Positions 8,600 to 23,271 of a stretch of DNA of 26,834 nucleotides are shown piece by piece. The DNA is from a virus (lineage: Duplodnaviria > Caudoviricetes), in the IMG/VR virus record IMGVR_UViG_3300012663_000751, positions 1 to 26,834 of that record; one strand, written 5' to 3'. The first letter of the stretch is position 1, and the number at the start of each line of letters is the position of its first letter. Made by a program: the position numbers and the translations under genes. The notes beneath the pieces were generated by a model, which searched no databases, was not told the DNA's origin, and saw only the letters and a program-made list of their open reading frames with translations.

Positions 8600-9243
8600 A
8601 GTTTAAATGCTTTAATAGTATCTACAAAAGGATCACCTTCTATGTTCTTAACTAAGTCTAACATTTGCTGAGCCAATTCTCTCACCTCAACTTGAGCATG
8701 CTCAGAGTTTCTAAGTTCTTGAAAATGTGCAAAAGACCTCCAATTAAACATAAGATCCATAGTAATCTGTGAGTTAAAGGTCTTGAAGAATCTTGCAGAT
8801 TCCTTAGCTCTCTTGCGACCAAGTACAGGAGTTAATTCTTCTAAACACTGATGATAAAGCTCATTGCTTCTCATAGTGTGTTGATGCAATAACTCTTGCC
8901 AGTCTTGTCCTACTAATCCTCCATCACCAGCATTGGCCCAGTCAACAGGAATGTAACTTTTATCTTTCTTTAGCTCTTTATATCTAGCTGACTCACCATT
9001 AATAGAAACTCCAATCCTATGCTTTAAAAGATGGATGTGAGTAGCCTGGTCCACAGTTACTAAAAAGTGCAGTGAAGACTTCTCAAATGGAGTATGATGA
9101 CCTTCTGAGGCCAACATTTCTAAGAGCTTAGGTATGCGCTCAAATTTATCTGGTGATAAATCTCTGGAGGTACTAGTCCATGCTGACAATGCATGTACAA
9201 TATCAGACCCATAGTATCCTAATAATTCTACTGTATTTTTCAT
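8596..9243 (-). CDS. thyX: FAD-dependent thymidylate synthase ThyX
   Basis: GHHTPFE, HLLKHRIGVSINGESARY (RHR-like motif plus SARY), NWRS and HAQVEVR. Confidence 0.92.
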   Translation of the reverse strand: MKNTVELLGYYGSDIVHALSAWTSTSRDLSPDKFERIPKLLEMLASEGHHTPFEKSSLHFLVTVDQATHIHLLKHRIGVSINGESARYKELKKDKSYIPVDWANAGDGGLVGQDWQELLHQHTMRSNELYHQCLEELTPVLGRKRAKESARFFKTFNSQITMDLMFNWRSFAHFQELRNSEHAQVEVRELAQQMLDLVKNIEGDPFVDTIKAFKL

Positions 9244-9404
9244 GCTTCTTCTGTATAATTTTCTACTATTTCATAGTGAGACATGCGCCCACAATTAACA
9301 CACTCTAGCTTATTAGATGATACATGATGTACTGACAATGATTCATGCCCACATAAGTCACACTTAATAAGAGCACTTATCCATCCTGTTTCTAGTTCAC
9401 TCAT
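9240..9404 (-). CDS. Zinc-ribbon protein (54 aa)
   Basis: Manual: MSELETGWISALIKCDLCGHESLSVHHVSSNKLECVNCGRMSHYEIVENYTEEA; two CxxC; ATGA coupling at both ends. Confidence 0.7.
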   Translation of the reverse strand: MSELETGWISALIKCDLCGHESLSVHHVSSNKLECVNCGRMSHYEIVENYTEEA

Positions 9405-9607
9405 TTGTCAATGTGTATTAAAAAACTTATTTTCCTATTCAATGTAGGATACTGGCTCAATAACCATAAAGTTAATTGATCTTGTTCTATTCCATCAATA
9501 TGAAACTCTGCATAAGTATGTATTTTATGTCCTTGCAAGACTGGGTCCTGTTGTAAATGCTCTGGAATCTCTGACAACTTAATTACTGATTTTGTTATTG
9601 TCTTCAT
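9401..9607 (-). CDS. Small hypothetical protein, last gene fed by the cassette junction repeat
   Basis: 68 aa; start codon lies inside ACAAGAACAATGA. Confidence 0.7.
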   Translation of the reverse strand: MKTITKSVIKLSEIPEHLQQDPVLQGHKIHTYAEFHIDGIEQDQLTLWLLSQYPTLNRKISFLIHIDK

Positions 9608-9720
9608 TGTTCTTGTGCATCATTATATAACATATACACCCTTTCTAAAATCTCTTCTTTGAGCTCATCTGTTAATGTTTGTAAATCCAAATCATTTAAC
9701 CATTGTTCAAAATCTTCCAT
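9604..9720 (-). CDS. Cassette peptide (38 aa)
   Basis: Manual: MEDFEQWLNDLDLQTLTDELKEEILERVYMLYNDAQEQ; bounded by junction repeats. Confidence 0.6.
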   Translation of the reverse strand: MEDFEQWLNDLDLQTLTDELKEEILERVYMLYNDAQEQ

Positions 9721-9732
9721 TGTTCTTGTTGT

Positions 9733-9786
9733 TTAAAATTTAATTTGTTTTTTACTTCTTAAGTATTTCAAGTGTAATTCTTTCAT
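9733..9786 (-). CDS. 17-aa mini-ORF or cassette remnant
   Basis: Manual: MKELHLKYLRSKKQIKF between two near-perfect repeats 66 nt apart. Confidence 0.35.
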   Translation of the reverse strand: MKELHLKYLRSKKQIKF

Positions 9787-9980
9787 TGTTCTTGTTGTTT
9801 AAATGTTTCGTTAAAGTATTGTTCTGATATTTCTGTAGTACCAATAGAACTTCTATATCCTTGATAATGAGCATTTATAATCTGCTCCTTATGCATTTCT
9901 TTGGCTTTATCAATGTCATATTGATATATAGCACCTTGAAGCGCATACATGTGCAATAAGTATTCTACTGCTGTTTTCAT
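9783..9980 (-). CDS. MKTAVE-family cassette protein
   Basis: MKTAVEY...KEQI...EQYFNETFKQQEQ; paralog of 10625 and 11082. Confidence 0.8.
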   Translation of the reverse strand: MKTAVEYLLHMYALQGAIYQYDIDKAKEMHKEQIINAHYQGYRSSIGTTEISEQYFNETFKQQEQ

Positions 9981-10135
9981 TGTTCTTGTTTAAATAGTTC
10001 AAGTTCTTCAATTACATCTTTTAAGTTTTCAATCACTTCATTTATTTCAAGTAAATCACTTTTAAAAATAGTAGTTTCAATTTCATTTACTTTTAATTCT
10101 AAAAATGCGTGTGTTCTTTTTATTGTTACTTTCAT
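9977..10135 (-). CDS. Cassette peptide (52 aa)
   Basis: Manual: MKVTIKRTHAFLELKVNEIETTIFKSDLLEINEVIENLKDVIEELELFKQEQ. Confidence 0.7.
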   Translation of the reverse strand: MKVTIKRTHAFLELKVNEIETTIFKSDLLEINEVIENLKDVIEELELFKQEQ

Positions 10136-10269
10136 TGTTCTTGTTGTTTAAAATGATTAATAATTATTCGTGTTTTACGCATCCACAGCCAACGCTTAAA
10201 CTTAAACCATCTTCTTAACTTCTTATGCCAATGGTCGTCCTTTAATCTTTTAGCCGCTTCTTTTATCAT
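10132..10269 (-). CDS. Cassette peptide (45 aa, Trp/Arg/Lys-rich)
   Basis: Manual: MIKEAAKRLKDDHWHKKLRRWFKFKRWLWMRKTRIIINHFKQQEQ. Confidence 0.65.
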   Translation of the reverse strand: MIKEAAKRLKDDHWHKKLRRWFKFKRWLWMRKTRIIINHFKQQEQ

Positions 10270-10460
10270 TGTTTTTGTCTTCTTAGTTCTGCAAGTAAAG
10301 CGTCTGCAAACTTTACGGCCATGATATCAATATCTCCCCTGTAATCAGAGGCTAACATTCCCTGCATTGCCAACCCTGCAAAGTATTCACGCTTGGTTAG
10401 GCCTACAAATTCTGTTTCTTTGTAATATGTAGGTGTAATTGGTTGTTCTCCATTTTTCAT
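10266..10460 (-). CDS. Small conserved phage protein (GLTKREYFA...AMQG family)
   Basis: GLTKREYFAGLAMQG...ADALLAEL, a widespread phage motif of unknown function. Confidence 0.8.
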   Translation of the reverse strand: MKNGEQPITPTYYKETEFVGLTKREYFAGLAMQGMLASDYRGDIDIMAVKFADALLAELRRQKQ

Positions 10461-10479
10461 TGTTCTTGTTGTTTAAAGG

Positions 10480-10623
10480 TTAATAAAATTCTTGTTTTAC
10501 GGTGTAGCCACTTTTATTTGTTCTTTCCCAACAAAATATAACACTTGCACCCATATTAAATTGGTATCTATTTCTATACCAAACACCACCCCGAAACTTT
10601 CTATACCATTGAAATCTGCTCAT
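10480..10623 (-). CDS. Cassette peptide (47 aa)
   Basis: Manual: MSRFQWYRKFRGGVWYRNRYQFNMGASVIFCWERTNKSGYTVKQEFY; stops just before an intact, untranslated repeat. Confidence 0.6.
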   Translation of the reverse strand: MSRFQWYRKFRGGVWYRNRYQFNMGASVIFCWERTNKSGYTVKQEFY

Positions 10624-10624
10624 A

Positions 10625-10897
10625 TCACTTTGTTTTAAATGTTTTATTAAAGTATTCTTCTGATTTTATTTCTTCTGTCAAAAGATTGAAATCTTTTATT
10701 CCATATTCTCCATTCCAACCTTCCGCACTTGCCATAAAACCATTATTTCTTGCCTCAATAACCTGCTCCTTTTCCATTTGTAATGCTTGTTCAAAGTATT
10801 CAGATAAGTCAGAATCTTCATACCATCTTGCCAATAATTCTTTATCAACACTTTCAAATACAATTTGTGATTGCAACCATTCTACTGCTGTTTTCAT
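10625..10897 (-). CDS. MKTAVE-family cassette protein
   Basis: MKTAVEWL...MEKEQVIEA...SEEYFNKTFK. Confidence 0.8.
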   Translation of the reverse strand: MKTAVEWLQSQIVFESVDKELLARWYEDSDLSEYFEQALQMEKEQVIEARNNGFMASAEGWNGEYGIKDFNLLTEEIKSEEYFNKTFKTK

Positions 10898-11085
10898 TGT
10901 TCTTGTTGTTTTGAACTTGCCGGAATTTCCGGATAGTTGGATTTTTTAAAGGTTACTTTACATCTTTCACAAGTGGAATTACTTGCAATTCTATTGTCCA
11001 AAGGCACATAACCAAACTCTTCAATGTAATCATTCATTGAGGCAGTCCATTTATGCCATCCAAATAAGCATAGTATTCTTTTCAT
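10894..11085 (-). CDS. DUF1660-like small Cys/His protein in cassette array
   Basis: ILCLFGWHKW...CERC; ends KQQEQ. Confidence 0.7.
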   Translation of the reverse strand: MKRILCLFGWHKWTASMNDYIEEFGYVPLDNRIASNSTCERCKVTFKKSNYPEIPASSKQQEQ

Positions 11086-11303
11086 TGTTCTTGTTTAAAG
11101 GTTTGGTTATAGTAATTCTCTGCCGTTATATTTACACCATCAAAATAATCAGCGCCAAAAATATCTCCTTGGGTAAATGCTGACATAACTTGTTCACGGT
11201 GCTTTTCTAATGCTTTTACTATGCATGGCTCATCCATTGCAACATTGAGCCCCGTCAACTTATTTATTTCTTCTACTACAAATTCTACTGCTGTTTTCAT
11301 CAT
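11082..11303 (-). CDS. MKTAVE-family cassette protein
   Basis: MKTAVEF...HREQV...AENYYNQTFKQEQ. Confidence 0.8.
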   Translation of the reverse strand: MMKTAVEFVVEEINKLTGLNVAMDEPCIVKALEKHREQVMSAFTQGDIFGADYFDGVNITAENYYNQTFKQEQ

Positions 11304-11857
11304 TGTTGTTTAAGTATGTTAGTATATCTCTTACCTTTTAACTCATCAATAGATATAGGTCTATAATCAATCAAATGAGCATCTACATTAAAGTACTTAT
11401 CTAATGTTGGAGCCGGTTTACTACCTTCATCCGTGTATGCATTACTGACTATAACTTCCTCAAGTTTATTTACATGATGAATATGTGCATGAATATTTCC
11501 CCGGTAGAACTGTACTTCATTAGGATGGATAGGTACATGAGTAACAATAAATCCTTTGTAGTCTACAGCTCCGGCAACACCATCTACATAAAGTAGTAGC
11601 TCTTTAACATTCTGATGTCTATCATGATTACCAAGAACTACTATCTTCCTGCCATTTAATTGGTCTAGCTTATAGTAATCTAAGGATTTCTCCATAGTAA
11701 CATCACCTACAATATAGGTAGTGTCTCTTTTAGATACCATTAGATTCCATCTTTTAATAAGATGCTCATCATGCTCTTCAGCATTATCAAATCCTCTATG
11801 CCTTGCTATACTAGCATGTCCTAAATGTAGACATCCTATGAACCTAACTATACTCAT
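11300..11857 (-). CDS. Calcineurin-like phosphoesterase (small phage type)
   Basis: GCLHLGH, VGDV, LGNHD, THVP, HAHIH and NVD motifs. Confidence 0.88.
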   Translation of the reverse strand: MSIVRFIGCLHLGHASIARHRGFDNAEEHDEHLIKRWNLMVSKRDTTYIVGDVTMEKSLDYYKLDQLNGRKIVVLGNHDRHQNVKELLLYVDGVAGAVDYKGFIVTHVPIHPNEVQFYRGNIHAHIHHVNKLEEVIVSNAYTDEGSKPAPTLDKYFNVDAHLIDYRPISIDELKGKRYTNILKQQ

Positions 11858-13735: not shown

Positions 13736-14005
13736 TTAAATTAATTCTAAGTCAGCTTCTTTTACTACTTCTTCTTCTAAGTTAGCAACCTGATCATCTA
13801 ATGGTACAAATCTATCAGCATCATAGTATTCATATGGAAAACAGTCAGCAGACATTTGTACCTCTTTTAGAAGTACACCGTATCTGCCATCCTGTAATCC
13901 CATCTTTACTACTTTGATAATAGTATAAGTTTCTCCTTTTTTGATCCATTGCGCAATAGGAATCTTAGCAGGCTTATTGCTGCTGTTCAGGCATATCACC
14001 TTCAT
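13736..14005 (-). CDS. Small SH3-like hypothetical protein
   Basis: MKVICLN...KKGETYTII...YDADRF. Confidence 0.7.
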   Translation of the reverse strand: MKVICLNSSNKPAKIPIAQWIKKGETYTIIKVVKMGLQDGRYGVLLKEVQMSADCFPYEYYDADRFVPLDDQVANLEEEVVKEADLELI

Positions 14006-14240
14006 ACTCTTCCATTTTTACTTTTAAACCAAGAGCTTCTAAAGATTCTCTCATGGTTTCAATCTGAGCCCAACATCCATGTTTAATAGTACACTTGCCC
14101 GCAAGGTCAGCAACTAGAGCACACTGTTCTGCTTGTTGTGGTTCATGTCCACAGTATTTGATCAAACAAGCCATAACATAAGAAAAGCTGTTTTTATCAT
14201 CATTGTACAATATAAGTTTATGATCTTCTGGTAGTTCCAT
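13974..14240 (-). CDS. clpS: ClpS-like N-degron adaptor
   Basis: LILYNDDKNSFSYV...CGHEPQQAEQCAL...GKCTIKHG...GL matches the Bacteroidota ClpS pattern. Confidence 0.85.
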   Translation of the reverse strand: MELPEDHKLILYNDDKNSFSYVMACLIKYCGHEPQQAEQCALVADLAGKCTIKHGCWAQIETMRESLEALGLKVKMEEYEGDMPEQQQ

Positions 14241-19058: not shown

Positions 19059-19086
19059 AAAAAAGCCCCTAATTACTTAGAGGCTT
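19059..19086 (-). terminator. Terminator directly after tRNA
   Basis: AAGCCTCTAA-GTAA-TTAGGGGCTT followed by a T run. Confidence 0.75.
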
Positions 19087-19162
19087 GGTGATCCTGACAA
19101 GATTCGAACTTGTGGCCTACTGCTTAGAAGGCAGTTGCTCTATCCAGCTGAGCTACAGGACC
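19086..19162 (-). tRNA. tRNA-Arg(UCU) with encoded CCA
   Basis: GGTCCTG/CAGGATC acceptor stem, TAGCTCAGCTGGATAGAGC D arm, ACTGC-CTTCTAA-GCAGT anticodon arm, GTTCGAATC T loop. Confidence 0.96.
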
Positions 19163-19661: not shown

Positions 19662-19970
19662 TTAAATTGCATCAAAGTTTGGTAAATCAGAATCAGTAAC
19701 TAATTCATCTAAGAATTTAGTTTTCTGATCTATTAGTCTTTCAATCTTAGCATCAAGTTTTACTATATGAAAGTCTCTAAGAAAAGAATCAATACGGCTA
19801 TGGTGTACAATACCTTCAATTGCTTGACCATATTTGCCATTATCCCAAGTACAAAGACCTGGATATTTCTTTACTAAATCTAATGCTTGTTTATTAGATA
19901 GTTTAACATTAAGCTTAACAAGGGTTTGTCCACCAAAAGATGTGTAACCAAAAGGAATTTTGTTTCTCAT
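19662..19970 (-). CDS. Hypothetical protein
   Basis: 102-aa ORF with A/U-rich leader. Confidence 0.7.
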   Translation of the reverse strand: MRNKIPFGYTSFGGQTLVKLNVKLSNKQALDLVKKYPGLCTWDNGKYGQAIEGIVHHSRIDSFLRDFHIVKLDAKIERLIDQKTKFLDELVTDSDLPNFDAI

Positions 19971-20002
19971 GAGTATATTTTTTTAGTTGAATAAAATAGT
20001 CT

Positions 20003-20262
20003 CCTAGTGATAAAGATATATAGCCAAAGACAAATTCAAAATCTAAGTCAAAGACCTTCTCTTCTTCAAAGGCAAAAACAAAAACTAAGTCTAGAGTGTG
20101 TCAGCCAATTTGCAAGTGTATCTGCAATAACCTGTCTGACGGAGAGTTCTATCTCAGTAAAGTTTGAAGAGAAGCGGTTCATATAAGATGATTAATAAAT
20201 CTTAAGAATGTAAGGGCGCATAACCCGTTCTTGCTATATCTTTTAAAATCTTTATCACTAGG
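20003..20262 (-). ncRNA. Structured ncRNA candidate with 6-nt periodic tract
   Basis: Perfect 15-bp terminal inverted repeat (20003-20017/20248-20262) extended by 7 bp, nested helices, and G every 6 nt from 20091 to 20025; no start codon in frame. Confidence 0.75.
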
Positions 20263-20306
20263 TGTAAAGAGCAAGAGAATCAGCTTCTGCTTATCTCTTG
20301 CTCACC
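20261..20306 (-). other. Strong hairpin between CDS stop and ncRNA (processing site or terminator)
   Basis: GAGCAAGAGA...TCTCTTGCTC 10-bp stem followed by TTT. Confidence 0.6.
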
Positions 20307-20315
20307 TATAAGTTC

Positions 20316-21227
20316 CTAGTTCTCAGGAATAATGAACATGTCAATTACACTTTGAAATCTAGGATCAACACTAATTCTTAGTGCAGCAGCATCTTTAATT
20401 GCCTTCTCACGGTTGGCATTAAAAGATGAATTCTCAGCTATGAACTGAGAGCGGTATGTATTCATAGCAGCTCTGTATTCTTCATTAATACGTTGCTCCT
20501 CTAATTCATAAGCTTTTGCTTTATCAGCATTTTCTTTCTGAATACGTGCATTCTCATCACTAACCAAGTTTTTAACCTTGGCTTTGTAATAGTTTACACG
20601 TTGCTCATAAGTTCTATGCTCATTAGCAATTTGCTCATGAGTAGCAAGCAACTGCTGTGCAGTATGATGCTTCTGAATCTTAACTGGTGTTTTCTCACCA
20701 TCTTTAACATTCATCCACTCAATAGCAGGAAGATCAGCTAACTGCTTACGCATCTGAGTCAACTTACCACCTTTGTGGATGAATTGACCAAGATGAGCAG
20801 CATATGCTTCAGCAGATAAGTACTCATTATACTCACTAGGAGTAAGCTGAGACCAACCCCAATTCTCACCTACAGAATTACTGATGTGAAGATCCGGATA
20901 CTCTGGACGCTCAGGCTCTACAAGATTAGAGCTATCAAATCTAGAACTTTCTAATTCTTGAATGATATCACTCTTCTCTTTAATAGCCTCCATCAAGAAT
21001 GCTTGAGTAGCATGCAATTTAGCTTTCTCTTTGAGTAACTCAAGAACTGTAGATGGCATAGCATATGCAGACTCTAAGTCAAATGTCTCACCAGCAATCT
21101 TAATTGATTTACTAGAGACATTGTAAGAGTCTAACTCACGTTGCATTTCTTGTGCACGTTGGTTGCACAGGTTAGAAATAGACTGTGCTTGGGACATAGA
21201 AAGTCCTTTTGTAGATAAATTTTTCAT
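20316..21227 (-). CDS. Long helical/coiled-coil protein upstream of the ncRNA
   Basis: 303 aa; GLSMSQAQSISNLC, AFLMEAIKEK, EAYAAHLGQFIHKGG, HRTYEQRVNYYK and LRISVD motifs; no catalytic motif recognised. Confidence 0.85.
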   Translation of the reverse strand: MKNLSTKGLSMSQAQSISNLCNQRAQEMQRELDSYNVSSKSIKIAGETFDLESAYAMPSTVLELLKEKAKLHATQAFLMEAIKEKSDIIQELESSRFDSSNLVEPERPEYPDLHISNSVGENWGWSQLTPSEYNEYLSAEAYAAHLGQFIHKGGKLTQMRKQLADLPAIEWMNVKDGEKTPVKIQKHHTAQQLLATHEQIANEHRTYEQRVNYYKAKVKNLVSDENARIQKENADKAKAYELEEQRINEEYRAAMNTYRSQFIAENSSFNANREKAIKDAAALRISVDPRFQSVIDMFIIPEN

Positions 21228-21272
21228 AATCAGAATTGGTTAAAAATAAATAAATAGAAAATAAATAGATAA

Positions 21273-21780
21273 ATAGTGTTGGCTCCCAGATCTTCTCAGC
21301 CCCGCACTATAAACGGACAATCTTTTTGTTCTCATAAAGATAGATTTATCCTGCGCTCACCACAGTGCCATTCCAATAGTATTGCTACTACCCAGAGCCA
21401 TGCGTCCTCTGTATTGTTAATAAAAATGCATGCCTATTTCATGGTCACATGCTCCCAATAACCCCTCTGCACTCAGTTTCCTACCTACCTATTTGTCACA
21501 TAATAGGAATTATTAGTTCTTAGAAACTGCTCACCCTTGGGAAGTAGAAATGGTACATTAGTTCAGTCCTTAAGGCATATGGACTAAAACCTGCATTGAC
21601 TACTGAGCTATGCTAACGCCAGTAACTTACTGGATAGTTGCCTGGTTAAAGGAAAGGCAACAATACTACTTTTATAACTTTGCTTGACATCAACAACCCC
21701 CTCAAGTATAAATACTTGTATGTAAACTGTATAGAGTGCAAAGGCCAAAAACTCCCCCTCAGTTATTTACAGTTGATGTG
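21273..21780 (-). ncRNA. About 510-nt non-coding region tiled with hairpins (ncRNA or structured leader)
   Basis: At least 8 stems seen by eye; richer in G/C than adjacent leaders; no credible ORF. Confidence 0.45.
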
Positions 21781-22641: not shown

Positions 22642-22673
22642 TTTATATAGTTTAGGGTAAATAAACAAAATAA

Positions 22674-22701
22674 TGAGCAGTTTAATATCTTACTCAGGAT
22701 A
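22674..22701 (-). other. H-type pseudoknot candidate in 5' leader
   Basis: TATC-CTGAGTAA-GATA-TTAAAC-TGCTCA; loop TGAGTA pairs with TGCTCA. Confidence 0.5.
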
Positions 22702-23169
22702 GTAGTCTGGATTGCTAATCCATAGTATAGGGAATTACATACTCAAAGCAATAAGAGTAAAACCACTGACTGTGTTTCATGTAATCTGTACCTATCATTT
22801 GTTCAAGGTTACTGATTAGTATAATTCCGGAAGATGTTACTGTGCTCTTCTTACTGTATATAGTAGTAGTAATAGTAATAAGTATAGTATATATAGAGAT
22901 AATACATATAGAGCTATGTTAGTACTCATGTTAGCTATATATACTAGTAATATATGCCTAAAACACTCATTTTGTACCACTTACTATGACCGTAATAATA
23001 GGAAGTGTTTTTCTGCCACACTAATTGCCTCTCATTCTCACAAAAAATTACCACTGATAATCAGGCAGTTAGCTTAAGTTGGTCTCATTTCTGTATATAT
23101 AGAGTACAAGACAAACTAACAGTACTATTACTTACTGTGACCGACACAGTACACCGCATCCTCCACCGC

Positions 23170-23182
23170 AGTTACAAGCGGC
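23170..23182 (-). promoter_or_regulatory. GCCGCTTGTAACT, 1-mismatch copy of the early motif
   Basis: 12/13 match to the four perfect copies; points into a non-coding tract. Confidence 0.55.
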
Positions 23183-23225
23183 AACCAAGCCTGAGCCTTT
23201 AGGCTCATACACCATGGGTCTGTAC

Positions 23226-23260
23226 AAAAAGAAAAACCCTGCACTTCCGTGCAAGGTTCT
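23226..23260 (-). terminator. Rho-independent terminator
   Basis: AACCTTGCAC-GGAA-GTGCAGGGTT followed by TTTCTTTTT. Confidence 0.8.
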
Positions 23261-23271
23261 TCCCCCAAGAA

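Follow-up and report, generated by a model that had tools for sequence, protein, structure and literature searches.

The window analysed here is a 26,834-nt stretch of DNA (IMG/VR virus record IMGVR_UViG_3300012663_000751), a fragment of an uncultured phage with a CheckV completeness estimate of 23%. On its minus strand, a 303-aa open reading frame (ORF) is followed by 345 nt without a credible ORF and then by a 102-aa ORF that runs from 19970. A preliminary description, made from the letters alone, had proposed that the 303-aa gene is paired with a structured RNA in this gap and that the RNA carries a periodic tract of hexamers. Our analysis shows that positions 20003-20312 of the minus strand are a conserved structured non-coding RNA of about 310 nt, which is linked to the gene so strictly that the two form a module. 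No described family fits either the RNA or the protein (Rfam 15, Pfam, PHROGs and fold searches). The two halves of the module are:

20316-21227, minus strand: partner gene of 303 aa, an ORF of no known family
20003-20312, minus strand: structured RNA of about 310 nt, kept in all relatives with downstream DNA, with covariation and with contigs from RNA libraries

A conserved structured RNA follows the 303-aa gene

The 15-nt arms of the RNA, CCTAGTGATAAAGAT, occur exactly twice in the window, at 20003-20017 (plus strand) and 20248-20262 (minus strand), as an inverted pair, and none of 100 shuffles gave two matches. A 331-nt stretch folds with an energy of -87.7 kcal/mol (z = -3.49), and again none of 100 shuffles was equally stable. 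Relatives were collected in two sets. A protein-led scan of viral contigs gave 23 loci (protein identity 52-95%), and the intergenic stretch is conserved in all 23 with a nucleotide identity of 70-98%, one of them (L004) being cut by the contig end. The 15-nt RNA box, used as a pattern, gave 119 further loci, 86 of which contain the whole element. RNA homologues were gathered with sequence-only nhmmer profiles, and 81 distinct homologous sequences entered the covariation alignment, from which RNAalifold derived the consensus. This consensus holds 47 pairs, with compensatory changes at 42 of them. Paired cells make up 93.5% of the observed alignment, compared with 77.6% after shuffling and 41-53% when the partners are slid by 1-3 columns, and on none of five measures did any of 500 shuffles reach the observed value. 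The alignment contains 282 G-U/U-G cells and only 55 A-C/C-A cells, an excess indicating that the folded strand is the gene strand. The exact inverted arms, the stable fold and the compensated pairs together bear out the closed structured unit of the preliminary description.

The helices of the RNA are listed below from its 5' to its 3' end.

20269-20303, minus strand: P1 hairpin, a 10-bp stem with a 3-bp apical stem; compensatory changes at all 8 + 2 pairs
20248-20262, minus strand: 5' strand of the closing stem P2; exact 15-nt inverted repeat, all 14 pairs covary
20233-20239 with 20018-20024, minus strand: P2b (AUAUAGC / GCUAUAU), a probable extension of P2, from a helix test in homologues
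20214-20226, minus strand: small GGG/CCC hairpin in the variable 5' domain; 3/3 pairs compensatory, 84% of cells paired
20166-20174, minus strand: 5' strand of the long-range helix P3 (CUUCUCUUC); 9/9 pairs compensatory, 94% of cells paired
20144-20155, minus strand: P4 hairpin GAG-AUAGAA-CUC, inside the conserved ACUGAGAUAGAACUC box; invariant in 79/79 sequences with letters there
20132-20140 with 20100-20108, minus strand: P5 helix (GUCAGACAG / UUGGCUGAC); 6/8 pairs compensatory, 98% of cells paired
20056-20064, minus strand: 3' strand of P3 (GAAGAGAAG), between the two hexamer rows
20003-20017, minus strand: 3' strand of P2; inverted repeat and covariation, and the RNA contig of library X15 (see below) stops at 20003 without a loose end

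P1 begins 13 nt past the stop codon of the gene, and the residues of its apical internal loop, UAAGC-ACAA-GCUGAU, are invariant or nearly so. Because of this loop P1 is counted in the RNA, which is accordingly about 310 nt long and not 260 nt as first proposed. Among the helices described at the outset, the 10-bp P1 hairpin, P2, CTTCTCTTC/GAAGAGAAG (P3), GTCAG/CTGAC (P5) and GGG/CCC all covary. The others fared differently: GAG/CUC (P4) is invariant, so that covariation neither supports nor refutes it, and AAGAT/ATCTT falls in a variable, poorly alignable part. The proposed extension of the closing stem past a bulge, ATATAGC/GCTATAT (P2b), is upheld, a helix of at least 5 bp being possible in 67 of the 81 homologues as compared with 30 of 81 when the 5' segment is shuffled. 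P5 encloses a variable hairpin, at which some relatives carry insertions. The 3' end of the RNA likely lies at the base of P2. A BoxA-like UGCUCUUUACA after P1 was considered and rejected, as it is not conserved in relatives and its GCUC is the covarying 3' strand of P1.

The RNA is absent from Rfam. When Rfam 15 was run on the whole window, only the tRNA reached the gathering threshold. On 19900-20400, with E-values up to 10, the search returned only noise, the best hit being STnc150 on the opposite strand with 19.6 bits against a cut-off of 60. No Rfam 15 family matched, including GOLLD, ROOL, tmRNA, ribozymes and Y RNA / YrlA. Likewise, ARAGORN finds no tRNA-like module inside the RNA, a search of a phage collection gave no DNA match, and a full-text literature search gave no description of such an RNA. 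Window and record each contain a single copy of the element.

Contigs from RNA libraries cover the RNA and reach into the gene

Contigs from lake and freshwater runs are almost identical to the window stretch, and six RNA libraries (X15-X20) hold contigs on the RNA:

20003-20277: X15, the whole of a 273-nt contig, depth 46.3
19995-20178, 20150-20277 and 20150-20273: X16, three contigs
20123-20280: X17, depth 41.8
20288-20459: X17, second contig, spanning RNA and gene end
20009-20242: X18
20143-20290 (depth 38.2) and 20264-20312 (depth 29.6): X19, two contigs
20148-20380: X20, spanning RNA and gene end

RNA-library contigs thus cover the element, whose transcription the preliminary description had presupposed, and two of them (X20, 20148-20380; X17, 20288-20459) bridge the gene end and the RNA, which are therefore co-transcribed. 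Contig depth is a poor measure of expression; with that reservation, contigs on the ORF in the same RNA runs have depths of 2-14.5, and in two DNA runs the contigs span both RNA ends at an even depth of 8-14. The shorter X19 contig continues past 20312 into sequence that we take to be Illumina adapter, which points to many inserts ending there, 4 nt past the stop codon. In three runs of three studies contigs stop at 20273-20280 without loose ends, contig ends being weak hints of RNA ends. Stretches without contig cover in the RNA runs are no evidence of silence. Taken together, these data hint at a discrete, relatively abundant species of 276-310 nt; there may be a shorter form, about 276 nt long, with its start near 20277-20280.

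The gene and the RNA form a module

In a profile-led protein scan (protein identity 50-95%), the RNA lies downstream of the gene in 79 of 80 loci, and the sole exception has 3 nt of DNA beyond the gene. Conversely, the protein gene lies upstream in 80 of the 86 RNA-led loci, and the remaining six have at most 148 nt of upstream DNA. The strict pairing claimed for the two halves therefore holds from either side. The RNA usually begins 4-30 nt past the stop codon of the gene. The flanking genes, by contrast, vary, falling into 31 clusters among 58 upstream ORFs and 22 clusters among 62 downstream ORFs. In 12 loci a gap of 160-755 nt separates the start of the RNA from the end of the protein match; in most of these the gap contains small ORFs or another non-coding piece, and such inserts leave the pair intact. 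Variable neighbours and tolerated inserts argue that the pair is a module and not a by-product of general synteny. Two distant protein relatives, used as single queries, gave no usable locus.

In two relatives (L026:2192-2354 and L201:2910-3070), the piece between gene and RNA is a non-coding insert of about 160 nt that is richer in G+C; it may be another small RNA.

Co-transcription with the gene, the start of P1 so close behind the stop codon and a U-rich stretch after the long P2 stem would all suit a purely cis-acting element of the 3' untranslated region, which stabilises or terminates the upstream message or regulates the downstream genes. However, an element of 310 nt, in which five helices covary and unpaired boxes are invariant, is far more elaborate than a terminator or a 3' protector would have to be, the downstream gene varies among loci, inserts between gene and RNA are tolerated, and contigs of the RNA runs are deeper on the RNA than on the ORF. 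A purely cis-acting role is thus, in our judgement, improbable.

Two rows of phased hexamers

The 3' part of the RNA holds two rows of hexamers, which flank the 3' strand of P3:

20067-20091, minus strand: row A, GACUUA GUUUUU GUUUUU GCCUUU G, 4 units, unpaired
20020-20055, minus strand: row B, GUCUUU GACUUA GAUUUU GAAUUU GUCUUU GGCUAU, 6 units

The 12 G-initial hexamers of the preliminary description are present as written, and in relatives they are conserved, unpaired and phased within each row. Row B is unpaired save for its last unit, which overlaps P2b. Row A spans 24 nt and row B 36 nt in all 81 sequences, none of which shows an indel within either row. The mean entropy is 0.10-0.63 bits at hexamer positions 1, 4, 5 and 6, compared with 0.87 bits for all well-occupied columns, whereas at the NN dinucleotide (positions 2-3) it is 0.65-1.09 bits, which is about the column average. 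NN are thus the most variable hexamer positions, and they are identical among relatives with 80-95% protein identity. Row A is kept almost letter for letter, GGUCUUUG in row B is nearly invariant, and the most conserved units, G(U/C)CUUUG, stand on either side of P3. The distance from row start to row start is 36 nt in 48 sequences and 37 nt, by one extra base, in the other 33, which means that the rows are two separate arrays and that the open frame of the window is an accident; the single register through the paired part, as first claimed, is kept in only 48 of the 81 homologues. In the 81-sequence alignment no RNA column covaries with the rows beyond clade signal, that is, no intramolecular partner was found. 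An RNAduplex search of the rows against both strands of the window, which is 23% of the genome, gave nothing better than shuffled rows. On their sequence features, these conserved, unpaired, phased hexamers look like repeated binding sites.

Several other readings of the tract had been offered or can be conceived. It seems hardly credible that there is no RNA gene here and that the locus holds a small protein or tmRNA-like frame, or a DNA element, for example an origin, an array of promoters or a miniature inverted-repeat transposable element bounded by terminal inverted repeats. The frame DLVFVFAF...VFDLDFEFVF is indeed open over the tract in the window, the 15-bp arms resemble terminal inverted repeats, and the recurrence of TTTG resembles that in the -33 boxes of Bacteroidota. 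Nevertheless, a reading frame is ruled out by the 1-nt indel that parts the two rows in 33 of 81 homologues, and in relatives the tract comes straight after a stop codon. As for a DNA element, the single copy in window and record speaks against it, and both the compensatory changes and the surplus of G-U over A-C cells (282:55) agree with transcription of one strand. A repeat template for a polymerase was a further suggestion; the hexamers are not identical, and no reverse transcriptase is found among the 51 window ORFs scanned with Pfam. The tmRNA-like, polymerase-template, coding and DNA-element readings were all rejected on this sequence evidence.

A more serious rival comes from the host side. 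CspB of Bacillus subtilis is reported to prefer 5'-GTCTTTG/T-3', in which the third position is C and the second, fourth and sixth are T (PMC1904285). The window RNA holds GTCTTTG twice and GCCTTTG once, and the most conserved units, G(U/C)CUUUG, equal this consensus heptamer. In the 81 RNAs GTCTTT[GT] occurs at 3.33/kb, as compared with 0.15/kb in about 300 kb of flanking sense strand, and G[TC]CTTTG at 5.37/kb as compared with 0.09/kb in the flanks. The best-conserved units are thus 20- to 60-fold enriched, the CspB consensus alone being present 1.12 times per RNA on average, 22-fold above the flanks. In view of this match and enrichment, it has to be considered seriously that the RNA acts as a decoy or recruiter of host OB-fold single-strand binders (cold-shock proteins, ribosomal protein S1) and that the gene is linked to it by shared transcription only. 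Against this stands the fact that the match concerns only a 7-nt motif, and that cold-shock domains have limited sequence selectivity and discriminate little between single-stranded DNA and RNA (PMC7825780). The CspB consensus itself was measured on single-stranded DNA (PMC1904285). Capture of host proteins would also leave unexplained the strict linkage to one gene and the ornate core of the RNA (P1 loop, P4 box, P5). No cold-shock or S1 protein is encoded among the 51 window ORFs scanned, a result that is silent on the host. We know of no natural RNA with an array of cold-shock protein sites. On balance we consider a decoy or recruiter of host proteins rather unlikely.

The partner protein belongs to a large family without a name

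A total of 2423 homologues of the 303-aa protein were found, all of them without a name or called 'hypothetical', and no Pfam domain occurs among the 120 listed. They reduce to 805 cluster representatives at 50% identity, of which the listed full-length ones have about 300-340 aa and no fusions. The 303-aa protein has no Pfam or PHROG match, 21 distant representatives show no Pfam family above the cut-off, and the protein search of a phage collection gave one weak match, with 25% identity over half the protein.

The AlphaFold2 (AF2) model, with a predicted local distance difference test score (pLDDT) of 87 and a predicted template modelling score (pTM) of 0.78, revises the initial label of coiled-coil protein. 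The label is right in part, the protein being partly coiled coil, but what the model displays is a bundle of helices with two beta-hairpins, together with a cluster of invariant His and Glu residues. In its topology a helix / beta-hairpin / long-helix unit occurs twice, and a helical hairpin forms the C-terminus. Among the invariant residues are C21, E140, H145, H151, H187, H188 and H197; in addition, an N-terminal G-L-S-x-S-Q-A motif is invariant, and an E-Q-x-V-N motif is followed by the invariant lysines 215 and 219. Structure searches led to no named fold: Foldseek against the PDB returned nothing at E <= 0.001 for the whole protein or for residues 1-191, BFVD only an unnamed homologue, a wide VIA-align search only generic helical hairpins and bundles (best Z 7.6 and 8.5), and the ESM Atlas unnamed clusters at 0.78-0.80, which is under its own trust level. 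A sequence profile search of the PDB gave only noise.

Genomic context

A tRNA gene lies downstream of the module:

19086-19162, minus strand: tRNA-Arg(UCU), called by ARAGORN, about 840 nt downstream of the RNA

Of 60 related loci, 30 likewise have tRNA-Arg(UCU) 0.4-1.9 kb downstream of the gene-RNA pair, and 36 have tRNA genes within 2 kb of it, with upstream tRNA arrays in L215, L220 and L223. Two relatives carry suppressor-type tRNAs that adjoin the module (L200:4088-4162 and L212:1834-1911), with the anticodons CUA (which ARAGORN calls tRNA-Pyl) and UUA; these are hints of stop-codon recoding in some of these phages. An unusual tRNA-like gene of 89 nt, whose anticodon has four letters (aaag), was called by ARAGORN at L217:3216-3304; it starts 2 nt past the RNA match.

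Elsewhere in the window, genes for replication and nucleotide metabolism (DnaB-like helicase, Sak4-like ATPase, ThyX, UDG-like protein, ParB-like protein, helicase, ClpS) stand beside many small ORFs without a name. The ClpS adaptor homologue (13974-14240, minus strand) matches Pfam PF02617 with E = 5e-14, and the phage also carries tRNA-Arg. Among the minus-strand genes at 9225-11316, at least 7 small ORFs share the upstream leader TTAAACAACAAGAACAATGAAAA (gene strand; repeat families D1-D9). This leader lacks a Shine-Dalgarno-like purine run, which would presumably fit a Bacteroidota host. Upstream of the 303-aa gene is a gene-free stretch of 553 nt (21228-21780, minus strand) with mosaic conservation among relatives. 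An Rfam search that allowed E-values up to 5 gave no match, and the stretch taken whole is no more stable in folding than its shuffles (z = +0.61). Within it, a motif of some 36 nt that includes CTTCCCAAGGGTGAGCAG (about 21525-21560) turns up at other places in related loci, among them the position directly behind the RNA in L020 and L021. Another gene-free stretch of about 600 nt (22669-23271) has 97% identity in L001 and only short patches in other relatives.

The relatives found are uncultured phages of lake and freshwater samples. In a search of genome contigs only six contigs of metagenome-assembled genomes (MAGs) matched; these are probably mis-binned phage and hence give no clue to the host. 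Further occurrences of the pair are on contigs of about 340-360 kb, L228 (JBAZIW010000001.1, 362,763 nt) and L062 (343,544 nt), one of which is filed as a Paceibacterota MAG; they are probably jumbo phages and not cells.

Comparison with known RNA-protein systems

The gene-RNA module is not VIPR, TRAP or Ro-Y, although it shares features with each. VIPR (Vipr plus vrRNA) is likewise phage-encoded, with a protein gene beside an RNA of short phased repeats that have constant and NN parts, and with a structured constant region in the RNA (bioRxiv 10.64898/2026.04.26.720920). In another preprint the protein is described as oligomerising along the repeat tract (10.64898/2026.04.26.720927). By analogy, protein would hold the constant UUUG while the NN dinucleotides, the most variable hexamer positions, read a nucleic-acid target as a noncontiguous guide. 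However, the NN entropy lies at about the column average, so NN cannot be called hypervariable; between close relatives they do not differ, row A changes by hardly a letter, and duplex targets in the window, with its 23% of the genome, are no better than those of shuffled rows. The period here is 6 nt (G-NN-UUU) and not 5 nt (YNNGG), and the 4 + 6 units lie inside a 310-nt multi-helix RNA, whereas in VIPR 9-16 units head a vrRNA of about 100 nt. Vipr is a RAMP with an RRM core, a G-loop and a thumb. In contrast, the AF2 order of the present protein (helix, beta-hairpin, long helix, helices, beta-hairpin, long helical hairpin) contains no beta-alpha-beta-beta-alpha-beta unit, and thus no RRM-type topology, so that it does not qualify as a RAMP; Cas5/6/7 are absent from its fold-search lists, an absence that does not by itself decide the matter. 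Moreover, the locus has neither a vap gene nor an array of RNAs. We hold a guide function of this kind to be very unlikely.

On the Bacillus trp leader, the TRAP protein, an 11-mer ring of a beta-sandwich of about 75 aa, binds 11 (G/U)AG triplets with 2-3-nt spacers. The likeness consists in a fixed-number array of unpaired units that contain U and G and follow each other with a 5-6-nt period, each unit in TRAP being bound by one subunit of the oligomer. The units here, however, are hexamers of the UUUG type in two rows, as opposed to (G/U)AG triplets in one row; the trp leader switches a terminator, whereas here the RNA is free-standing, folded and 310 nt long; and the 303-aa protein has no match to Pfam TrpBP. 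GOLLD and ROOL are reportedly large covarying RNAs of phages and prophages, without assigned function and near tRNA genes. The present RNA is likewise large, covarying and near tRNA genes in phage genomes, but it is much smaller than those two, and their Rfam models do not match it. Neither GOLLD nor ROOL is known to have hexamer rows or an obligate partner gene.

In the Ro60 (Rsr)-Y RNA / YrlA systems, too, a protein gene stands beside its cognate structured RNA, in bacteria and in phages (PMC4201824). Both systems also occur in tRNA-related contexts, the present pair having tRNA genes within 2 kb in 36 of 60 related loci. P2, with its 14-15 bp and all pairs covarying, is a terminal stem formed from the 5'-proximal and 3' ends as in Y RNAs, a resemblance only. 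The module could accordingly be a Ro/Y-RNA-like helper of RNA quality control or tRNA handling, in which the terminal stem would hold the protein and the rows would thread into a host nuclease or another enzyme. On the other hand, the protein lacks a TROVE or vWA domain (0 families in a Pfam scan), the Rfam Y RNA and YrlA models do not match, ARAGORN detects no tRNA-like domain, and Y RNAs are not known to have phased hexamer rows. Phage tRNA regions, for their part, contain many unrelated small genes. We rate such a helper role as a long shot.

A candidate RNA-protein particle

We give about an even chance to the reading in which the RNA is the RNA half of an RNA-protein particle and its hexamer rows dock a fixed copy number of a single-strand-binding protein, most likely the product of the neighbouring gene. 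A fixed number of units, a fixed phase within the rows and single-strandedness are what would be expected of docking sites for a defined number of subunits. In such a particle, the transcript would be cut or trimmed to a stable species whose 5' end would be near 20312 (or near 20278) and whose 3' end, near 20003, would be shielded by the terminal stem P2. One hexamer would be one docking unit, with constant G and UUU and a freer NN, and the protein would assemble on its own RNA while both are made. The pair may then serve an RNA-handling task, with tRNA genes near it in the majority of related loci; a Ro/Y-like helper would be a special case of this particle, with a named task.

Several points weigh against a particle of this kind. 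Besides the limited weight of contig depths and ends noted above, the mutual information between protein columns and hexamer columns is not distinct from clade signal, the top pairs being clade signal themselves, and shared transcription alone can also give the linkage of gene and RNA. The protein is acidic (pI 5.84; family median 5.79), so it does not readily suggest a coat protein of RNA, and it may be an enzyme; its invariant His, Glu and Cys residues would suit an enzymatic role no less than RNA binding. In addition, the structure searches found no recognisable RNA-binding fold.

The pair is abundant, with its 2423 homologous proteins and 805 representatives at 50% identity, and is found in phage contigs of up to about 340 kb from lakes and other waters, yet both its halves are nameless and without a related fold or an Rfam family. 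Time and again, large conserved RNAs that come with an obligate partner gene have proved to be new machines, as with tracrRNA, omega RNA, Y RNA and vrRNA. In the present case the fixed ruler of 4 + 6 hexamers offers a direct handle on stoichiometry and specificity. Tentatively, the module is possibly a third independent case, beside TRAP and VIPR, of an RNA of phased short repeats read by a protein oligomer, here with a 310-nt scaffold that would meter 4 + 6 G-NN-UUU units and with a new protein fold. If this is true, the 4 + 6 ribonucleoprotein, widespread among phages, would capture host proteins of the cold-shock or S1 type, or read nucleic acids through NN, and the phages that carry it would thereby take over host RNA metabolism.

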